Positions 4,928 through 62,526 of a DNA stretch of 64,000 nt are shown one piece after another. How positions within the stretch are numbered: the stretch's first letter is position 1; each line of letters starts with the position of its first letter. The notes beneath the pieces are model-generated. The model had not been told where the DNA came from and made no database searches. It saw nothing but the letters and a program-made list of their open reading frames with translations. This DNA is from Escherichia phage T4: sequence record MZ375356.1, one strand, 5' to 3'. The translations under genes and the position numbers were made by a program.

Positions 4928-5481
4928 ATGATAATGATACTTCATTAGAAGTAACGCTTAGTGCATCATAATCTGTCGCGGTTACTTGGGCTACGCATTT
5001 AATTCTTTTTACTCCACTTGTAGTTGGAGTATAGCTAAATGTAGAGTTAGTTTCTCCACCAACTTGTGAATCATCTACATACCACTGATACGTAGCAGAT
5101 GCTCCATCAGGTTGAGAAGCTAAGGCAGCAGTAAATTGAACTGGGGTTCCAATCACTCCAGCCGCAGGACTAGCAGGAGTTACGGCTAAGGTAGTCGTCT
5201 GTGTCTTATTTTTAACTGTGATAGTTGTTGTCGCTTCAGCCGTTTCCGGGCCTCCTTCAGAAAGTGTATTTGTTGCAACTACTTTAATAGTCTTTTGACC
5301 GGCAGGTCCTTTTAGCATAACTAAAAGTTGCTTCAGCTCCATCTTGTGGAACATTATCTACGCTCCAAGCATATGTAATAGTTCCGCCTCCAGTTTGACC
5401 ACTGGGTGTAGCAGTAAACTGCTTAGTTTCATCAATAACCCCTGTAGGTGTTTTAGGAGTTATATCAACTGTAAAAGTCAT
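4926..5481 (-). pseudogene. hoc: Hoc outer capsid protein, frameshifted after ~55 codons and lacking C-terminal half
   Basis: ORF 5284..5481 begins MTFTVDITPKTPTGVIDETKQFTATPSGQ then changes frame; ORF 4926..5354 continues with Ig-like domain sequence and stops 83 nt before 24.3; total ~190 codons versus 376 aa remembered for T4 Hoc. Confidence 0.8.
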
Positions 5482-6219: not shown

Positions 6220-6748
6220 ATGTACCACTTTGTATATGAAACAACAAATCTAATAAATGGTAAAAAGTATATAGGAAAGCACTCTACTGATGACTTGAAT
6301 GATGGTTACCTTGGTTCCGGTAAGGCAATTCAGCAGGCTATAAAGAAATATGGTGAAAACAATTTCTCTAGAACAATACTAAAAGAGTTTAAAACTTCCG
6401 AAGAAGCGTACATGTATGAAGAAGAAATTATAACTCCTGAACTAATAAAAAGCAAAAATTATAATATGAAACCTGGTGGAATTGGTGGAATTGGTGGAAT
6501 TGTTATGACTACAGATGTTATAGCAAAGATGAAAGAATCTTCCGCTAAAAGATTTGAAAACTCACCGGGCACGGTATTAGGTAAAACTTGTTACTAATGG
6601 AACTAAAAATATTTTTATTAAACCTGGAGAACTTGTTCCAGAAGGATTTGTAAAAGGGATGGTTCATCCTAATAGAAAGTCCAGAAAAGGATGTAAAGTC
6701 AAACCGACTACCACAGGAACTTTTTGGGTCAATAATGGCGCAAAATAA
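6220..6748 (+). pseudogene. segE: GIY-YIG homing endonuclease SegE-like, at least two frameshifts
   Basis: ORF 6220..6597 has GIY-YIG motif (MYHFVYETTNLINGKKYIG); Seg-type C-terminal motif (IFIKPGELVPEGFVKGM) continues in the next frame to 6748; a second copy of that motif is in the third frame running into uvsW. Confidence 0.7.
6475..6501 (+). repeat. 9-bp tandem repeat (GGTGGAATT)x3 inside segE
   Basis: three perfect tandem copies encoding GGIGGIGGI. Confidence 0.9.
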
Positions 6749-9505: not shown

Positions 9506-9549
9506 TTGTTATTGGTTGTTATTGGATGTTATTGGATGTTATTGGATGG
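9506..9549. repeat. tandem decamer repeat (TTGTTATTGG/ATGTTATTGG) x4 plus partial copy
   Basis: seen directly; lies in the uvsY upstream region between uvsY and gene 25. Confidence 0.9.
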
Positions 9550-21996: not shown

Positions 21997-22061
21997 AGGA
22001 ACACGTAATATTTCACTCGCGTGATCGCAGTGGTGAGCGAGATCGTCAATAACAAATTACG

Positions 22062-22482
22062 TTATTTCTCTTTTGCTTTTTTGAACAACTCTTCTTTTGA
22101 AGAATCATGACTACACATCAGTACTTCTGAGAAAGCACCAGGAAAAAGAGCATTCAAATTAAATTGACGATTTAATAGAGCGTCAATAGAATCACCCAAT
22201 GCTGTAACAGCAACAAAATTATAATCTTCTTTTAATTTGTTAATTACACAGAGCATCTTTATATGGAGACAAGTAACGAATAAAATCCGAACGATTGTAT
22301 TTTTCAATTAACTTGACGCCAAGTTCTTCATCACAGTTAAAGAGTTTACCAGGAGAAATAAATTTCTCATCTTGGATCATTTTTAAAATATGTTCTAACG
22401 GAAGATTATATTTCTGAGCAAAATAAGGAAGGCCTGATTGCCAGCTTAAACATACTCCATCAATATCAGTTAATAGTAGGCT
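22062..22482 (-). pseudogene. HAD-superfamily phosphatase-like gene in pieces (positional 30.3)
   Basis: HAD motif I (LLLTDIDGV) lies immediately after the upstream stop; motif IV-like GDSIDA is in ORF 22062..22307 in another frame; the only ATG is in a third frame. Confidence 0.5.
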
Positions 22483-24022: not shown

Positions 24023-24204
24023 TTTTATTCTCCGAGATGTTTAATTGCGGTACAGGTATAATATCATATCCTGTACCAAAGTAAACAATTATTTTACTAC
24101 TTTCCAATGCTGCATGTCAAGTTTACCAACTTTTTTCATCTTCTCAATTAAGCGTTCTGCACGTTGGCGAGCTAACATAATGCCATTCGCCTAATTCATT
24201 TTGT

Positions 24205-24417
24205 TCAATTTTTCCAACGAACTGTATTCAATTCATAAATCCAACCAGTAAAGAAATTATGAACTTGAATTGTAAAGGTGAAATCTGTTCCCATACCTTC
24301 TGTTGTTTCTACTTCAATAATATCACCTTCAACTGCCATTAAGAACCACATAGTTTCATCATATTTACCATTGAAGCATTTAGTTTTAACTGCAGCGTTC
24401 AGATTAATCGTTTTCAT
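24205..24417 (-). CDS. hypothetical protein (30.x cluster)
   Basis: 70-aa ORF preceded by early-type promoter. Confidence 0.45.
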   Translation of the reverse strand: MKTINLNAAVKTKCFNGKYDETMWFLMAVEGDIIEVETTEGMGTDFTFTIQVHNFFTGWIYELNTVRWKN

Positions 24418-27708: not shown

Positions 27709-27766
27709 ATTATTAGCGATTTTGGCTACACTACTTCTACGATTTTAGAGTAAGTCGGAAACATAT

Positions 27767-27957
27767 TTACCTCACATAATTTTCTTCAAGCCAATCAATA
27801 ACATCCAACGCATTATCAAAAGTTGAACCATCTACTCTGTCTTCTGTTTCATAATCAAGAACATCTGCCTACTCTTCCGTCAACAATAGGCCATAGACAA
27901 AATAGATATTTCTTTTCTTTTTCAATTTTATCACAAAGACGATAAATCTTTTCTAGG

Positions 27958-30492: not shown

Positions 30493-32079
<1,587 letters not shown>

Positions 32080-32080
<1 letters not shown>

Positions 32081-32101
32081 AATAAAATGGGCCTTGCGGC
32101 C
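32080..32101 (-). terminator. hairpin between nrdB and denA
   Basis: GGGCC-GCAA-GGCCC on minus strand followed by ATTTTATT. Confidence 0.45.
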
Positions 32102-32107
32102 CACTCC

Positions 32108-32610
32108 TTAAAAGTATTTTTTAAAACTCATCATAACTTTATCATCAACATCATTATCAATCTGTGCAACAAGGTAAGATGACAGTTCTACTTCTTGCGG
32201 CGCGGATTGAACATTATCAGAATTAAGATATTCACGAATCCAAGGATATGGATGTTTAACCGGAGCATCGGTAATTGGGCATGGAAGACCGCACTGTTTC
32301 ATACGAGATACAGTTAAGTAATCAATAAAGCTCCACATGCTATTTGTATTTAATCCAGGAACATCACCATCTTTAAATAAATGAACTGCCCAGTCTTTTT
32401 CCTGGCGGTTAACTTCCATGAAAATATCAACTGCTTCTTGTTCACACTCTTGGGCAATTTTAACCCATTCATCACCATCAGTACCGGATTGAAGTTGACG
32501 AATAATATATTGGGTGCCTTTAAGGTGAAGCTGTTCATCACGTGCAATGAACTTCATAATCTTGGCATTACCTTCCATGATTTCCATGTTCTTATGGAAG
32601 TTAAAGGTAC
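32108..32610 (-). CDS. nrdB: ribonucleotide reductase small subunit NrdB, exon 2
   Basis: translation ...TFNFHKNMEIMEGNAKIMKFIARDEQLHL aligns to class Ia R2; boundary placed after intron terminal G; exon1+exon2 = 388 aa. Confidence 0.8.
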
Positions 32611-33206
32611 CGTATGTTCGATTGAGCTCGCTAATTCTCAACCCGTTCTCTTATGAACTGCTGCATGTTACCATGCAGTCCAGACTATATCACAATCCCG
32701 GAGGGATTCTCCCCATTTCGAGTCGCTTGACCCTACGTCCGAAGACTAGTCGTTGAACCTTGTTTTGCAATTGTCGCCGTGCCATCGTTTATATGTTGAT
32801 GGTGATAAATCTTTCTTATCACAATATGGACAATTCAATTGAATTCTATTTGGATTTAATTTACATCTGTCATTATGTTTTAGATAAAATCCAGGACCTT
32901 TACCAATGTGACCACAGAAATCACATGTGATTTCTTTTTGTGCAGGATGGGTCCCGTTCTTAACCATTTCTAATGTTTTTGCTGATGTTCTTTTCTTATG
33001 TTCTTCCATCAGAATCTTTAGGTAGGTCCGTTAGCATCTATCCAAATTTTTCTATAGTTCAATTGTGCATCCTCTTAAAAGTATAATCATATTTATATTA
33101 TACTAATTAAAGGTGCAAGCAAAACCTTGGCTGCTAGTTTTCCATAAAGGACTTTCCAGCAATTAAAGGAGTTTTCGATAAACGTTACCGTTTAAAGGCG
33201 CATTTT
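32611..33206 (-). mobile_element. group I intron in nrdB (596 nt) carrying truncated I-TevIII ORF
   Basis: interrupts conserved R2 sequence YVSFA/C/TFNF; exon 1 ends in U, intron ends in G; in-frame stop right after splice site. Confidence 0.75.
32746..33009 (-). pseudogene. I-TevIII: I-TevIII homing endonuclease remnant (truncated zinc-finger/HNH-type ORF) inside nrdB intron
   Basis: 87-aa ORF with Cys/His clusters (CDFCGH, CPYCDKK), too short for an intact HNH endonuclease; the T4 copy is known to be truncated. Confidence 0.6.
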
Positions 33207-33870
33207 ACGCAAAAGATACATAAAAACGAATAGCTTCTAAGGCATTAATAACGTGCAAACAGAGGTAAAGAGATTTCATCAGATCTCGTTTAGCTCTTTG
33301 CTCAACGTCTTTATCAGCTAGAATTAGACCTTGGTCTTTATAATATTCAACCATGTCTTTAGCATTTTCCCATTCACGGGTTTTAACCAAGACATCATCG
33401 TAATATCGCCCAATGGACTCAGCACGTTTCATAATAGCTTCATCTAATACAATCTCATCAAACACCTTCGATGGATCAGTATAAAGATTTCGCATGATAT
33501 GAGTATATGAACGACTGTGAATAGTTTCACTAAAAGTCCATGTAGCAACCCATGTATCAAGGCTTGGGTCTGAAATTAATGACATAAGTACAGCAGATGG
33601 CGCACGACCCTGAATGCTATCCAAAAGTGATTGATACTTCAGGTTGTTAGTAAAAATATTTTGCTGATACTGAGGAAGCTTATTAAATTGCGCAGCATCC
33701 ATCATTAAGTTTACTTCTTCAGAACGCCAAAAAAAACTGATCTGCCGCTCAATGAGTTCTTCAAATACTCGATGTCGTTGAATATCATATCGAGCTAAAC
33801 CTAATCCAGAACCAAAGAACATCGGTTCATTCAAAACATCAACTGGATTTGTATTAAAAACTGTACTCAT
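33207..33870 (-). CDS. nrdB: ribonucleotide reductase small subunit NrdB, exon 1
   Basis: 221-codon ORF ending ...NALEAIRFYVSFA at the 5' splice site. Confidence 0.85.
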
Positions 33871-34565
33871 TTAGAATCCTTAAATTTACATTTATCATAA
33901 TGCCATCTTAAAGCATTGCCTTTATTAACTTTCTTACCACAGTGCGGGCAAGGTGGATACTCTGCTCCTTGTTTAGTTCTCAAAGAAATCAAATCACGGG
34001 TTTCTTTAGTATGAGGAACATCTCTTGTCGGAGAAATTGTACCATACATCGGATTAAGCACGCCGACTTTAGCAGCAGCTATATTCTTTTTAGCTTCTTC
34101 AGTTTTAGGCTTTCTCATCTTTTTCTTAGTTTCTTCGCTTTTAGCCCTTCCTTTGGTTGCCGCCGATATTTTGTGTTTGGTTTCTTCTGTTAAACGCAGA
34201 CCTGTTTTCGCTTTTGACATTTTCAGTCTCGTTTCTTCAGAAATGACCGTACCTTTGCGAAATTGCGAATTTAACTTCTTTGCATGGGCATATATTTTAG
34301 AATGAACTTTATAATGACGTTTCTTAGTTCCTTTCATATTGCACATCATGAAAAATGCGAATATAACAGATTTTACCGGATAAATCTTTGATAAAATAGC
34401 ATGCGCTATAAAATGCTCTCTAGCTGTTAATTCAACTAAATTTTCTTTATCATCAGAACCTCCCATGCATCTAGGGATTATATGATGTGTCTCTTTATAT
34501 TCGGATAAAGGTTCCCGAGCCTGAGCTCGGGAAATTAGGTCGTTATAGATTTTTTGATAATTCAT
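33867..34565 (-). CDS. mobE: HNH homing endonuclease MobE (intact ORF) between nrdA and nrdB
   Basis: 232-aa ORF with HNH motif HHIIPRCMGGSDDKENLVELTAREH and repeated basic S-E-ETK-K-MSKAK modules. Confidence 0.75.
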   Translation of the reverse strand: MNYQKIYNDLISRAQAREPLSEYKETHHIIPRCMGGSDDKENLVELTAREHFIAHAILSKIYPVKSVIFAFFMMCNMKGTKKRHYKVHSKIYAHAKKLNSQFRKGTVISEETRLKMSKAKTGLRLTEETKHKISAATKGRAKSEETKKKMRKPKTEEAKKNIAAAKVGVLNPMYGTISPTRDVPHTKETRDLISLRTKQGAEYPPCPHCGKKVNKGNALRWHYDKCKFKDSK

Positions 34566-37695: not shown

Positions 37696-38703
37696 CATTA
37701 TGTTCAGATAAGGTCGTTAATCTTACCCCGGAATTATATCCAGCTGCATGTCACCATGCAGAGCAGACTATATCTCCAACTTGTTAAAGCAAGTTGTCTA
37801 TCGTTTCGAGTCACTTGACCCTACTCCCCAAAGGGATAGTCGTTAGGCATTTATGTAGAACCAATTCCATTTATCAGATTTTACACGATAAGTAACTAAT
37901 CCAGACGAAATTTTAAAATGTCTAGCTGCATCTGCTGCACAATCAAAAATAACCCCATCACATGAAATCTTTTTAATATTACTAGGCTTTTTACCTTTCA
38001 TCTTTTCTGATATTTTAGATTTAGTTATGTCTGAATGCTTATGATTAAAGAATGAATTATTTTCACCTGAACGATTTCTGCATTTACTACAAGTATAAGC
38101 AGAAGTTTGTATGCGAACACCGCACTTACAAAACTTATGGGTTTCTGGATTCCAACGCCCGTTTTTACTTCCGGGTTTACTGTAAAGAGCTTTCCGACCA
38201 TCAGGTCCAAGTTTAAGCATCTTAGCTTTAACAGTTTCAGAACGTTTCTTAATAATTTCTTCTTTTAATGGATGCGTAGAACATGTATCACCAAACGTTG
38301 CATCAATATTGTATCCATTAATTTTAGAAAGCTCTTTAATCCAAAAATTTTCTCGTTCAATAATCAAATCTTTCTCATATGGAATTTCTTCCAAAATAGA
38401 ACATAAACACATTACCATGTTTGTTAAAAGACCTCTGAAGTTTTATAGAAGAATGGCATCCTTTTTCTAAATCTTTAAAATGCCTCTTCCATCTCTTTTC
38501 AAAATCTTTAGCACTTCCTACATATACTTTATTGTTTAAAGTATTTTTAATCTGATAAATTCCGCTTTTCATAAATACCTCTTTAAATATAGAAGTATTT
38601 ATTAAAGGGCAGTCCTACAATTTAGCACGGGATTGTCTACTAGAGAGGTTCCCCGTTTAGATAGATTACAAGTATAAGTCACCTTATACTCAGGCCTCAA
38701 TTA
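37696..38703 (-). mobile_element. td group I intron (1008 nt) carrying disrupted I-TevI
   Basis: 5' boundary CTTGGGT/TAATTGAGGCCTGAG and 3' boundary CTGAACATAATG/CTACCG match the remembered T4 td intron; 8 nt shorter than the 1016 nt remembered for T4. Confidence 0.9.
37843..38572 (-). pseudogene. I-TevI: I-TevI GIY-YIG homing endonuclease, frameshifted
   Basis: ORF 38375..38572 MKSGIYQIKNTLNNKVYVGS...KHGNVF then frame change; ORF 37843..38418 resumes ...CSILEEIPYEKDLIIERENFWIKEL to end ...KWNWFYINA; GNVF-EC junction lacks 2 nt. Confidence 0.9.
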
Positions 38704-39873
<1,170 letters not shown>

Positions 39874-40313: not shown

Positions 40314-40656
40314 TCATCTACATTGTTCGTCAACAATGCAGTGAATTTTTGTTACGCCAGAAACCTTGTCTTTGACTTCATCTTCTTCAGAAGTCGGTTC
40401 TTTATATTCGCGGAAACAATAAAACTCTTCACTAAGTTCAAAATAATCATCACCCATACCATCATCATTATAGATTTCACCATTAGCACAAATGATTTCG
40501 GTTACATAATCAAAGCCATCTAAACTTGATATTGATAACTTCAAACCAACCGCCATTTTCTTGAATGATGCCGACCATACTAGCATTTGATGAACTAATA
40601 TCAATGAAAGATTTAATACGATGTGGATTTAACTCGTATTTTTTGCCGATTTCCAT
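40314..40656 (-). pseudogene. frd.2: frd.2 with frameshift
   Basis: ATG with RBS at 40656 gives MEIGKKYELNPHRIKSFIDISSSNASMVGIIQENGGWFEVINIKF then stop; ...SLDGFDYVTEIICANGEI... continues in the frame of listed ORF 40314..40604. Confidence 0.5.
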
Positions 40657-40701
40657 TTTGATTTTCCTCATTTTAATAGGGGCTTGATAGCCCCTTGATA
40701 A

Positions 40702-40927
40702 TTATTGTTCAATCAGTCCCATGTAAAATTCTGCGTCTTCAGAATCCATGCCATCACAATATTCATTAGCCATAAAGCGGGTGAGGTCTTCAAGAGGACC
40801 TTCAATAACGATTTGAATACTCCAAAACTTAGAATCTTGCACGCTTGTGATACTAAGTTCAGGATAACGATTACGAATAATCTCTTCAATATTCAAAATC
40901 AACGATGTCAATATCAACTTTAGCCAT
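40702..40927 (-). pseudogene. frd.3: frd.3 with frameshift near codon 13
   Basis: ATG with RBS AAAGAGGAAA at 40927 gives [13 protein letters not shown] then stop; downstream frame (listed ORF 40702..40917, non-ATG start) carries the rest. Confidence 0.5.
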
Positions 40928-40944
40928 ATTATTTTCCTCTTTAA

Positions 40945-41037
40945 TTAGCAGTATTGCCGATAGTTGTATAGTACCATAAAGCTTTATGCTTGTAAACCGT
41001 TTTGTCCATAAAGCTTTATGCTTGTAAACCGTTTTGT
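40945..41037 (-). promoter_or_regulatory. early-type promoter region with perfect 32-bp tandem duplication (40974..41005 and 41006..41037)
   Basis: each copy carries GTTTAC -35 and a GCTTTA MotA-box-like motif; only the proximal copy is followed by GGTACTATACAACTATC; element family also at 57760 and 60818. Confidence 0.5.
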
Positions 41038-42062: not shown

Positions 42063-42690
42063 TCATAGCTGGCATAATTCGCAATACTCTGGGTCTTCGA
42101 GAGGTATCCAACCTGAGTTGAAATACTTTACCATCGATTTAGCAGTTGTATCAGTTATATTTATATTACCTTTAACTCTTCGCCATCCAGGAGTTTTACC
42201 GTACAGATTAGAGGATAATAACACATAATTCTCGTAAGCAATATGAGATAATTTCCAAGACTCTATATTAGCTCGTGATGTTTTCCAAGGTCTAAAATCG
42301 TCACGGTTCATATAAAGCCAATCTCATATGCTCTCTAACTTCCGGGTCTTTGGCTGGATGAGTTTCACCACTCACACCAAATCCACCACCAGCATATACC
42401 AGATTAAAATAGTCTGGATTATCTCTGGCATTTACTTCAAGTTGGTATTTTCGTTCTGCTTCAATAACATCCAAGTCATCATCAATTTGAATTATTTTAA
42501 CGCTCGGTTTTTGAAGCATTAGCGCATTCAAAAATCTTTTTTGTTTACATGAGCTCCAGTATTCCTTTCCGGAAGAGTCATATATTATTCCGTTCTCAAA
42601 TGAGCAATTTAATTTACTACCGATATAGTAGTATGGCGGAGTCTTATTTTTGACACGGTCTTCAAATGTAAACCAATATACTATATTCAT
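42063..42690 (-). pseudogene. segG: GIY-YIG homing endonuclease SegG-like (gene 32.1), frameshifted
   Basis: ORF 42301..42690 has GIY-YIG core (YYYIGSK, NLVYAGGG); ORF 42063..42311 overlaps in another frame; span 628 nt. Confidence 0.6.
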
Positions 42691-55844: not shown

Positions 55845-56015
55845 AGTGCTGAATTACCTCTCTTAAACATTTGCATGTGAATGAAAACTTTTAGCTACAC
55901 CACATTCAAATATGTTCTCTTAAATCGCGTGTATCGATATCCCATCTCAACAATAAAATGCCGTATTAGATTTTTATCTTTATCGTTTAGAGAATTAAAA
56001 TAATCAGATTTTGAA

Positions 56016-60566: not shown

Positions 60567-60694
60567 TTTACACCATTCCAAATTGTTTCAACCACGGATT
60601 TTAAACCATTTTGATGAATATCCATTCCTACTACCGCTGAAACCTGTGCAACCCACCACGCACAAGCAATAAGTACAGAATTCAAAATTTTCAT
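60563..60694 (-). CDS. small hydrophobic peptide (43 aa; ndd.x cluster)
   Basis: ORF MKILNSVLIACAWWVAQVSAVVGMD... Confidence 0.3.
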   Translation of the reverse strand: MKILNSVLIACAWWVAQVSAVVGMDIHQNGLKSVVETIWNGVK

Positions 60695-61744: not shown

Positions 61745-62526
61745 TTATTTAAATTGTTCAGTAACGTCTTCAACTACTTCATATTGGCAGGTACGCATTT
61801 TAGCATCGTTGTAATCAATCGGAATTGATACTACATCGCGAGGATGAACTTTAACTTTTACAACTCGGCTGGTTGAACTACCAAAGTGACGAATATAAGA
61901 TTTAGAACACACATGCAAACCACGAGAACAAGTTTGTGTATCATCGTCATTCACACGAGTACGTGGCATTTTAACTACTACCCGGACTGTTATCAAAGGT
62001 GTTTGAGTGACAGTCAAAGTAATTGCTGCGAACTACTTTCCAAGCATAGAAAACCATCTTCTGTAATTTCAATATCGTTTGCTACCAAGAAATCAAAGAG
62101 TCGAGATACCGCTTTTTGGCTTGGGTTTTCCAACAGATTTTCCAAGAACGGAAAATAAAATTCAAAGTTTTCGCCTTTTTCCATCGAGTCAAGAATACGA
62201 TCAACCAAACCAGACCGCAATTCAATATTTTGATAGAACAAGCTTCCACCTTCAATTCGAACATCGCCGGAAATATATTTTTCAACAGCACGACGAACAT
62301 TAATTTTTTGTGCCGCTTCTTCCAACTTATCCGCTACAAGCAGATTAAGAATTTCCTGGAAGTTTGAATGAGTATTAGGAGTTGCGTTATAAGTTACGCC
62401 ATCAACAGTAATTGAAATGAATTTTTTAGATGCATTCCAAATAATGTCAGATTTAGCAACTGGAGCAATAACTGCATCGCTATTAACTTTAACTGTAATA
62501 TCACCGCTAATAGTAACTTTAGGACG
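61745..62526 (-). pseudogene. rIIB: rIIB remnant: N-terminal ~51 codons absent, internal frameshift near 62017
   Basis: [30 protein letters not shown]... through ...[10 protein letters not shown] (in ORF 62014..62850) then frame change to ...CSRGLHVCSKSYIRHFGSS...EQFK (ORF 61745..62017); remembered N-terminus MYNIKCLTKNEQAEIV not present. Confidence 0.6.

Follow-up and report, generated by a model that had tools for sequence, protein, structure and literature searches.

A TA dinucleotide is missing from the I-TevIII remnant of the nrdB group I intron in a clone of Escherichia phage T4

Introduction

Why should the nrdB intron in a phage T4 sequence be two nucleotides shorter than the T4 nrdB intron of the literature? 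That intron, its length of 598 nt, its splice sites and its crippled endonuclease gene I-TevIII have been known since 1986-1991. The window analysed here is a stretch of 64,000 nt of T4 DNA whose minus strand carries mobE, the intron-interrupted nrdB and denA at 31.5-34.3 kb. A first-pass annotation had read the interrupting element as the T4 nrdB group I intron, placed it at 32611-33206 (596 nt) by the U/G boundary rule and a 388-aa R2 product, gave 598 nt as the length in T4, and suggested that two nucleotides may be missing, possibly inside the already truncated I-TevIII ORF. Here, we examined the splice sites, the missing nucleotides, the endonuclease remnant and the ribozyme core of this intron, together with the clone from which the sequence comes.

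Results

Splice sites and the nrdB product

The interrupted gene consists of three segments:

33207..33870, minus strand: nrdB exon 1, 664 nt, from Met1 to the first base of Cys222
32611..33206, minus strand: nrdB group I intron, 596 nt (the reference T4 intron has 598 nt)
32108..32610, minus strand: nrdB exon 2, 503 nt including the stop codon at 32108-32110

Exon 1 ends at 33207 with ...UAU GUA UCU UUU GCG U, and the intron begins at 33206 with AAAATGCGCC... (in its longer form, AAAAUGCGCC). The intron ends at 32611 with ...CGAACATACG (in its longer form, CGAACAUACG), and exon 2 opens at 32610 with GU ACC UUU AAC UUC. The insertion point lies between the first and second base of the nrdB Cys222 codon. 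The joined exons (664 + 503 = 1167 nt) give 388 codons plus a stop, and the protein reads ...EAIRFYVSFA-C-TFNFHKNMEIMEGNAK... (TFNFHK...) across the junction. The U/G rule and the 388-aa R2 used in the first-pass annotation are confirmed, with an exon ending in U, an intron ending in G and a spliced CDS of 1167 nt.

We aligned 200 nt of the in-silico spliced junction with intronless nrdB (e.g. T6 and KMB23) and obtained a single ungapped alignment; 599 records each covered at least 80% of this query. At the junction, the intronless alleles read GCT-TGT-ACC or GCA-TGT-ACC. The intronless T6 nrdB CDS is likewise 1167 nt long, and its product equals the spliced window product in length (388 aa). 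Furthermore, the spliced R2 matched Pfam PF00268 (RNR small chain) in one stretch at 125.3 bits (residues 33-331), which spans junction residue 222. The boundaries cannot slide, since the intron starts with A and exon 2 with G, while the intron ends with G and exon 1 with T. Colinear intronless alleles and the PF00268 match across the junction thus show that the proposed boundaries, 32611-33206, are exact and that the junctions do not lie elsewhere.

The spliced product is the class Ia ribonucleotide reductase beta subunit (R2) across the junction. NrdB of the window also carries a P50S substitution, caused by a C>T change (coding strand) at 33723 in exon 1, at which it differs from all other T4-like sequences compared.

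One TA unit is missing from the intron

The reference length of 598 nt was taken from GenBank records, both as the CDS span in AF158101.6 and X04140.1 (1765 nt) minus the 1167 coding nt and by direct extraction from AF158101.6 with the same exon anchors as for the window. Both values bear out the length given in the first-pass annotation, and the reference intron is not 596 nt. The first-pass annotation had proposed an alignment with the T4 intron as a check, and a four-way alignment revealed one difference within the intron, where the reference reads GGACCTATACCTAAAG and the window GGACCTACCTAAAG.

33022..33025, minus strand: missing-TA site, reference CCTA-TA-CCTA, window CCTACCTA, intron nt ~183-186

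One unit of (TA)2 is gone from the reference sequence CCTATACCTA. The site corresponds to codons 13-14 (Pro-Ile) of the native I-TevIII frame and to codons 5-6 of the annotated 97-aa ORF. The guess that the two nucleotides were missing inside the truncated ORF was correct, as the TA is absent 14-17 nt downstream of the annotated ATG.

We compared positions 32000-34000 of the window with GenBank phages by megablast. Record OL964745.1 ('Mutant Escherichia phage T4 clone T4_7t1') was 100% identical over 2001 nt; the 14 other T4 records were 99.8% identical to the window, each spanning 2003 nt and carrying the 598-nt intron. The TA is absent from one of the 15 T4 records, and in intron and exons the window differs from the others by the TA and the exon 1 C>T only. 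The intron is a textbook element whose 596-nt form is already in GenBank.

Among 106 phage records with the stretch around the TA site, OL964745.1 alone was identical. Matches of the same length at this site were found in four wild phages, vB_Eco_F26, LH2, FL23 and FL44. The alignment of F26 and LH2 shows the identical TA loss (GGACC--TACCTAAAG), and the loss in FL23 and FL44 was judged by BLAST match length. An exact-match search of IMG/VR viral contigs with a TA-deleted 33-mer gave 0 hits. The TA has been lost at least twice independently, indicating a mutation-prone site.

Acquisition of the loss by recombination with an F26-like phage was rejected, since the window has neither the 6-nt deletion nor the junction base that are specific to F26.

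The I-TevIII gene is a remnant

The following elements of I-TevIII were located in the intron:

33090..33097, minus strand: T4 late-promoter motif TATAAATA, located in a hairpin loop; the hairpin sequesters the ribosome-binding site of I-TevIII
33070-33076, minus strand: I-TevIII ribosome-binding site AAGAGGA, sequestered in the hairpin
33060..33062, minus strand: native I-TevIII start codon TTG, as in phages ELT1 and HY03, whose full-length genes encode 269 aa
32998..33006, minus strand: junction GAAGAACAT left in T4 by the ancestral 493-nt deletion, through which the HNH domain was lost
32746..33009, minus strand: 87-aa ORF that is left, with an internal Met start; it covers the zinc-finger part at the C-terminus of I-TevIII

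The arrangement of late promoter and hairpin upstream of I-TevIII is as described previously (PMC2988022), and the TTG start lies 8 nt downstream of the Shine-Dalgarno sequence AAGAGGA. In full-length introns, the repeats GAAGAACAT and GAAGACCAT flank the 493-nt segment that is absent from T4. This deletion took away the catalytic domain of I-TevIII and shifted the frame. We found no HNH domain (PF13392) in the 87-aa ORF of the window, and the same domain is present in the full-length ELT1 protein at residues 4-48. The 87-aa ORF corresponds to residues ~183-269 of ELT1/HY03 I-TevIII, with which it is collinear and near-identical, including the CX2C...HX3C motifs known as zinc-finger motifs of I-TevIII (PMC1865063). 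Its last 8 codons overlap P6a', P6', J6/7 and P7.

The reference 97-aa ORF starts at the ATG at 33035-33037. In the window, this reading frame meets a stop after 13 codons, and the N-terminal I-TevIII remnant in the native frame is shortened from 22 to 14 codons through the TA loss. The I-TevIII ORF in the window is a gene remnant that encodes no functional HNH homing endonuclease. According to published work, T4 I-TevIII derives by deletion from the active enzyme of RB3, and the nrdB intron of T4 is mobilised by MobE, in trans only (PMC1865063, PMC2790892, PMC2988022).

The ribozyme core is complete

The intron core is split into two halves by the P6a loop:

33119..33206, minus strand: 5' half of the intron core, with P1 IGS, P2, P3 5', P4/P5, P6 and P6a 5'
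33198-33201, minus strand: IGS GCGC, pairing in P1 with exon GCGU, including a U.G pair
33179-33194, minus strand: P2
33166-33171, minus strand: P3 5' strand
33132-33161, minus strand: P4/P5
33119-33125, minus strand: P6a 5' strand, GUUUUGC, intron nt 82-88
32769..33118, minus strand: P6a loop, a peripheral insert outside the catalytic core, with the I-TevIII expression signals and most of the ORF
32611..32768, minus strand: 3' half of the intron core, from P6a 3' to the terminal G at 32611, including P7.1, P7.2, P9.1 and P9.2
32762-32768, minus strand: P6a 3' strand, GCAAAAC, nt 439-445
32747-32751 paired with 32683-32687, minus strand: P7
32709-32714, minus strand: P3 3' strand
32695-32707, minus strand: P8
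32661-32678, minus strand: P9

P1 is formed by exon ...GCGU and intron nt 6-9 (GCGC) with the wobble pair U-1.G6, and is kept in all five introns compared. Omega-G is present, the last intron base at 32611 being G (...ACAUACG/GUACC, with the slash at the splice site). The hairpins P7.1 (GUC-UUCG-GAC) and P7.2 (GGGUC-AAGC-GACUC), both predicted in the MFE structure, lie between P7 5' and P3 3' and are invariant in 5/5 introns.

Fourteen helices (P1-P9.2, 71 pairs) were assigned manually and examined in an alignment of five nrdB intron cores stripped of their ORFs. Over the five introns, 98.6% of the positions in these 71 pairs could pair, compared with 32-43% in slid controls. Compensatory changes were found at two pairs of P2 and one pair of P9, and wobble-preserving changes in P4, P6a and P9. 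With 98% column identity the set has little depth, and P3 and P7 do not vary in it, so that covariation support is modest; what backs the P3/P7 pseudoknot in the five-intron set is complementarity and the Rfam alignment.

At gathering thresholds, the Rfam scan of the whole window gave no match (the RF00028 threshold is 50 bits). In E-value mode, RF00028 scored 35.7 bits (E = 3e-7) at 32661-32901, where the 3' core (J6/7, P7, P3', P8, P7', P9) aligns well and the 5' half is mis-aligned to ORF sequence. We attribute the sub-threshold score to the ORF insert, which puts the 5' core ~350 nt away across P6a. The intron is IA-type according to the GenBank note 'group 1A intron', and it has the extra P7.1/P7.2 hairpins of this subgroup. 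Both the core helices and the sequence alignment to T4 records agree with the initial reading of the element as the T4 nrdB group I intron. The 598-nt T4 nrdB intron is said to have been shown in the 1986 literature to undergo guanosine-dependent self-splicing in vitro.

Predicted effect of the TA loss

The TA site lies within the P6a loop, ~95 nt from the P6a 5' strand and ~250 nt from the 3' strand. We compared ViennaRNA ensemble pair probabilities between the 598-nt and 596-nt RNAs, and found that those of P1, P4, P6a, P7.2 and P9 were identical and that the hairpin sequestering the ribosome-binding site had the same ensemble probability in both. Since all core helices are intact, the 596-nt intron is predicted to splice and to allow synthesis of the 388-aa R2. 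The coding effects of the TA loss are confined to a gene already killed by the 493-nt deletion. Position and a thermodynamic prediction that is blind to the P3/P7 pseudoknot suggest that splicing is unimpaired and that the deletion is functionally silent. The deletion is probably neutral.

The source clone carries many small deletions

T4_7t1 very probably comes from Yuan et al. 2022, a Cas9-based iterative genome reduction of four phages over 300-600 serial transfers (PMC9825161). Neighbouring GenBank records, OL964735 (T4_3t3), OL964744 (seszw_6t3) and OL964746 (selz_8t1), carry the names of three of its four phages (T4, seszw and selz), and T4_3t3 and T4_7t1 apparently come from the same work by their clone and phage names. 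Over 48 kb, sister clone T4_3t3 differs from wild-type T4 only by 1 SNP and a single deletion of exactly 100 bp. This deletion is of the kind made by the 'cassette-100' design, and the annotation cites 'T4583L', a mutant named in PMC9825161. The assignment of T4_7t1 is based on the clone and phage names, the cassette-type 100-bp deletion and 'T4583L'. The hosts in the source study carried Cas9 and lambda-Red.

We compared 62.5 kb of the window with the modern wild-type T4 sequence MT984581.1, and found 52 small deletions, 6 insertions and 13 substitutions. Two-nucleotide deletions dominate (35 of 52, with 6 of 1 nt and 11 of 3 nt), and about half of them remove one tandem-repeat unit. Ordinary spontaneous frameshifting in T4 is not known to give such an excess of 2-nt over 1-nt deletions. 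Against AF158101.6 there are further differences, many of which are long-standing errors of that reference (e.g. adjacent bases swapped).

The deletions are unevenly distributed. Essential genes account for 36% of the region and contain none of the 41 frameshifting deletions; 13.6 were expected under a GC-matched null, and a count below 4 occurred in 0/5000 simulations. The only two deletions in essential genes, in gp29 and gp34, are in-frame 3-nt losses. There are also no deletions in 18.3 kb of named auxiliary genes, against about 22 expected. Several dispensable genes carry multiple deletions, with at least 4 in segE, 4 in 30.2 and 3 each in I-TevI, frd.2 and arn.1. The lesions of the clone include frameshifted I-TevI, frd, segD/E/G, hoc and rIIB. 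The avoidance of essential genes and the clean sister clone indicate that the small deletions are real, selection-filtered, lineage-specific mutations.

At SpCas9 NGG cut sites, the 52 deletions show no enrichment (7/52, where 10.7 +/- 3.0 would be expected). PAM-proximal seeds are depleted of them, and 17 of the 52 have no NGG within 20 nt. CRISPR escape as a general cause of the clone's deletions was dropped on these grounds.

Two further candidate causes were considered for the clone. A mutator DNA polymerase was rejected, as gp43 of OL964745.1 is 100% wild type. Errors of oligo synthesis in homology arms are unlikely given the mid-gene sites, the whole-gene-deletion library and the 2-nt-dominated spectrum.

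Discussion

Taken together, this evidence suggests, with a probability of roughly 0.85, that the window contains the known T4 nrdB intron with a real TA loss, which arose by slippage of a repeat unit in a laboratory-evolved clone and is silent. Since the source is a laboratory-evolved clone with dozens of similar deletions, the 2-nt shortfall is a strain lesion, and neither a property of T4 nor an error in the length that the first-pass annotation gave for T4. Most probably, one repeat unit was lost when strands slipped or misaligned, either in replication or in the repair of a break; the lineage accumulated dozens of 2-3-nt deletions in dispensable DNA. Slippage is the mechanism that we infer, and the excess of 2-nt over 1-nt deletions in the clone is a point against this reading.

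The TA loss could alternatively be a CRISPR escape, in which I-TevIII was targeted by the Cas9 spacer library, the seed of the protospacer was destroyed and the mutant was selected. We regard this as unlikely. The TA interval does adjoin a predicted SpCas9 cut on the plus strand (...TTTAGG/TAT-AGG, with the slash at the cut), and a candidate protospacer in I-TevIII ends ...CTTTAGGTAT with the PAM AGG. In the source study, non-essential genes were each targeted by SpCas9 with at most 8 spacers, and some 1-2-nt deletions of T4 were ascribed to escape (PMC9825161). Multiple deletions per dispensable gene are also what serial escape from several spacers would be expected to leave. However, such a coincidence at a single site has a chance probability of ~20%, the deletions of the clone show no enrichment at NGG cut sites, and the same TA loss occurs in wild phages that were never exposed to this spacer library.

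It is very improbable that the TA is missing through an error of sequencing or assembly in the genome record, which was built from Illumina reads with SOAPdenovo, and that the true intron has 598 nt. AT-rich repeats can be mis-resolved by de novo short-read assemblers, the TA is missing in one of 15 T4 records alone, and OL964745.1 has unusually many small indels relative to T4. But random errors would not spare essential frames (0/41 compared with 13.6 expected, with two 3-nt in-frame losses), sister clone T4_3t3 has no such indels over 48 kb, and the authors of the source study found deletions of this type in population reads with breseq.

An adaptive loss, which would stop leftover I-TevIII peptides (the 22-codon fragment or the zinc-finger remnant) from binding the nrdB homing site or operator, is scarcely credible: recurrence in T4_7t1 and, independently, in the F26/LH2 group, the choice of T4_7t1 for high infectivity and the zinc fingers in the C-terminal region retained by T4, which the intact enzyme requires for DNA binding (PMC1865063), would fit it, but the 87-aa zinc-finger ORF stays open after the deletion, mutation bias readily explains two losses at a (TA)2 repeat, and unrelated dispensable genes of the clone carry dozens of deletions of this kind. 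Moreover, the minimal DNA-binding domain of I-TevIII begins at residue 166 and the T4 remnant near 183, which makes DNA binding by the remnant doubtful.

Beyond slippage of a repeat unit in this clone, we tentatively raise the possibility that the TA loss is one case of an uncharacterised, lineage-specific burst of 2-3-nt deletions in dispensable DNA, without a centre on Cas9 PAMs or cut sites, though we do not consider this likely. Such a burst might have come from targeted genes being cut repeatedly by Cas9 and mended by mutagenic recombination-dependent (break-induced-like) repair, or from a mutator state of the dNTP pool related to the frd frameshift and NrdB P50S of the clone. Plain slippage across many generations could also have produced the deletions. 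If a repair or dNTP-pool cause were true, it would go beyond the tentative 'CRISPR-escape' account of the source paper.

For annotation, the value of these results is that the window is not wild-type T4, and that discrepancies in length and ORFs from the reference are lesions of an engineered, evolved clone. The independent loss of the TA in wild phages agrees with the published view of an eroded, decaying nrdB intron. The sole potential for research lies in the 2-3-nt deletions found throughout the clone, whose spectrum does not follow the target sites of Cas9.

Comparison with known introns

The closest relative is the T4 nrdB intron itself (X04140.1; AF158101.6 / NC_000866.4), which occupies the same site in the same gene with the same junctions and is identical to the window at 596 of 598 intron positions. 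Both share the 493-nt I-TevIII deletion, the late promoter, the hairpin at the ribosome-binding site and the core helices. The window differs in the absent TA, in the replacement of the 97-aa ORF by a 13-codon stub and an 87-aa ORF, and in P50S in exon 1.

The RB3-type full-length introns of ELT1 (1091 nt) and HY03 (1096 nt) have the same insertion site, a near-identical ribozyme core and an ORF looped out from P6a. Their 269-aa I-TevIII proteins, of the HNH family, share the N-terminal 22 and the C-terminal ~87 codons with T4. In contrast to the window, they keep both the 493-nt segment encoding the HNH domain (PF13392) and the TA. The full-length intron of the RB3 type encodes an active endonuclease (PMC1865063).

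The introns of vB_Eco_F26 (592 nt) and LH2 (591 nt) combine a T4-like internal I-TevIII deletion with exactly the same TA loss as in the window. Unlike T4, they have an additional 6-nt deletion in the loop of the late-promoter hairpin, the deletion junction GAAGACCAT in place of T4 GAAGAACAT, and substitutions in P9 and P8. These differences mark F26 and LH2 as a separate lineage, in which the TA was lost independently.

The td intron with I-TevI (~37.8-38.7 kb in the window) resides in the same phage, and likewise consists of a group I core with an endonuclease ORF looped out from a peripheral helix. Its control by a late promoter and hairpin resembles that of nrdB (PMC2988022). However, the td intron interrupts another host gene, encodes a GIY-YIG and not an HNH endonuclease, and is mobile in wild-type T4; in the clone studied here, I-TevI is frameshifted by small deletions.

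Small deletions across the clone

We compared the whole window with the wild-type T4 record MT984581.1, and found 52 small deletions, most frequently of 2 nt (35), followed by 3 nt (11) and 1 nt (6). In many cases, a short tandem repeat had lost one of its units. Examples are found at positions 1657, 5315, 6591, 22048-22471, 24056-24220, 27720-27866, 38303-38404, 39539, 40325-40943, 42214-42315, 55888-55936 and 61978-62051. For 50 of the 52 deletions, the site was intergenic or fell in hoc, frd, rIIB, a homing-endonuclease gene or a small unknown ORF. Essential genes were hit by only two, both in-frame 3-nt losses:

14529: loss of TTA in gene 29
47969: loss of TAA in gene 34

Across the window, the 52 deletions showed no association with SpCas9 NGG sites, and none of them was present in the sister clone T4_3t3 over the 48 kb compared.

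Disrupted genes and the mobE reading frame

The genes concerned lie as follows:

33867-34565, minus strand: mobE
37843-38572, minus strand: I-TevI ORF of the td intron
39249-39828, minus strand: frd, encoding dihydrofolate reductase

The I-TevI ORF was split into ORFs of 65 aa and 191 aa by deletions of 3, 3 and 2 nt, and the td exons were unaltered. Therefore, the td intron of this clone is also without its homing endonuclease. In frd, loss of TA at 39539 shifted the reading frame and left two ORFs of 109 aa and 87 aa.

We found that mobE is a single intact ORF of 232 aa, as in modern T4 records. In the old T4 reference AF158101.6, it is split into mobE and nrdB.1 by two additional single bases, at about 34130 and 34216. 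Since MT984581.1 agrees with the window, these two bases look, from the aligned sequences, like reference errors rather than mutations.

Insertions, duplications and larger deletions

Larger and more complex changes relative to T4 were located as follows:

about 4932-4939: deletion of about 570 bp inside hoc
6463-6482: 20-nt stretch of segE with clustered small indels and substitutions
9507-9546: 20-nt insertion between uvsY and gene 25
40974-41037: perfect 32-bp tandem duplication in the intergenic DNA between frd.3 and gene 32
about 60628-60637: deletion of about 340 bp that takes out ndd.2a-ndd.5

The 20-nt insertion consists of two additional copies of TGTTATTGGA, and its site is the oriF/uvsY promoter region. 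The tandem duplication comprises two copies of CCATAAAGCTTTATGCTTGTAAACCGTTTTGT and sits immediately downstream of gene 32. The complex cluster in segE looks as if AAACCTGGTGGAAT had been duplicated or rearranged locally, rather than altered by a set of independent events.

Substitutions in nrdB and gene 37

In exon 1 of nrdB, we identified the substitution P50S (33723, minus strand), which hits the conserved motif FFWRPEEV. Proline at this position is common to T4, T4_3t3, the phages with full-length nrdB introns (ELT1 and HY03) and the wild phages with truncated ones (vB_Eco_F26 and LH2); E. coli R2 likewise has proline here. If P50S renders the ribonucleotide reductase hypomorphic, dNTP pools might be altered.

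Gene 37 carries three substitutions within 48 nt (53495, 53536 and 53542; codons 937, 951 and 953), mapping to the distal tip of the long tail fibre. They may reflect host-receptor adaptation during serial passage.

Group I introns and the I-TevIII deletion junction

At Rfam gathering thresholds, no matches were returned in the 64-kb window, and the two bona fide group I introns that it holds, td and nrdB, were thus both missed. RF00028 falls under the cut-off probably because ORF inserts occupy the peripheral loops of the introns. The E-value-mode RF00028 scan covered the nrdB intron.

The truncated nrdB introns of vB_Eco_F26 and LH2 retain the right-hand copy of a 9-nt repeat at intron positions ~205 (GAAGACCAT), whereas the T4 intron retains the left-hand copy (GAAGAACAT). 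Judging from these junctions, the 493-nt I-TevIII deletion would have had either two origins or different resolution points within the repeat.
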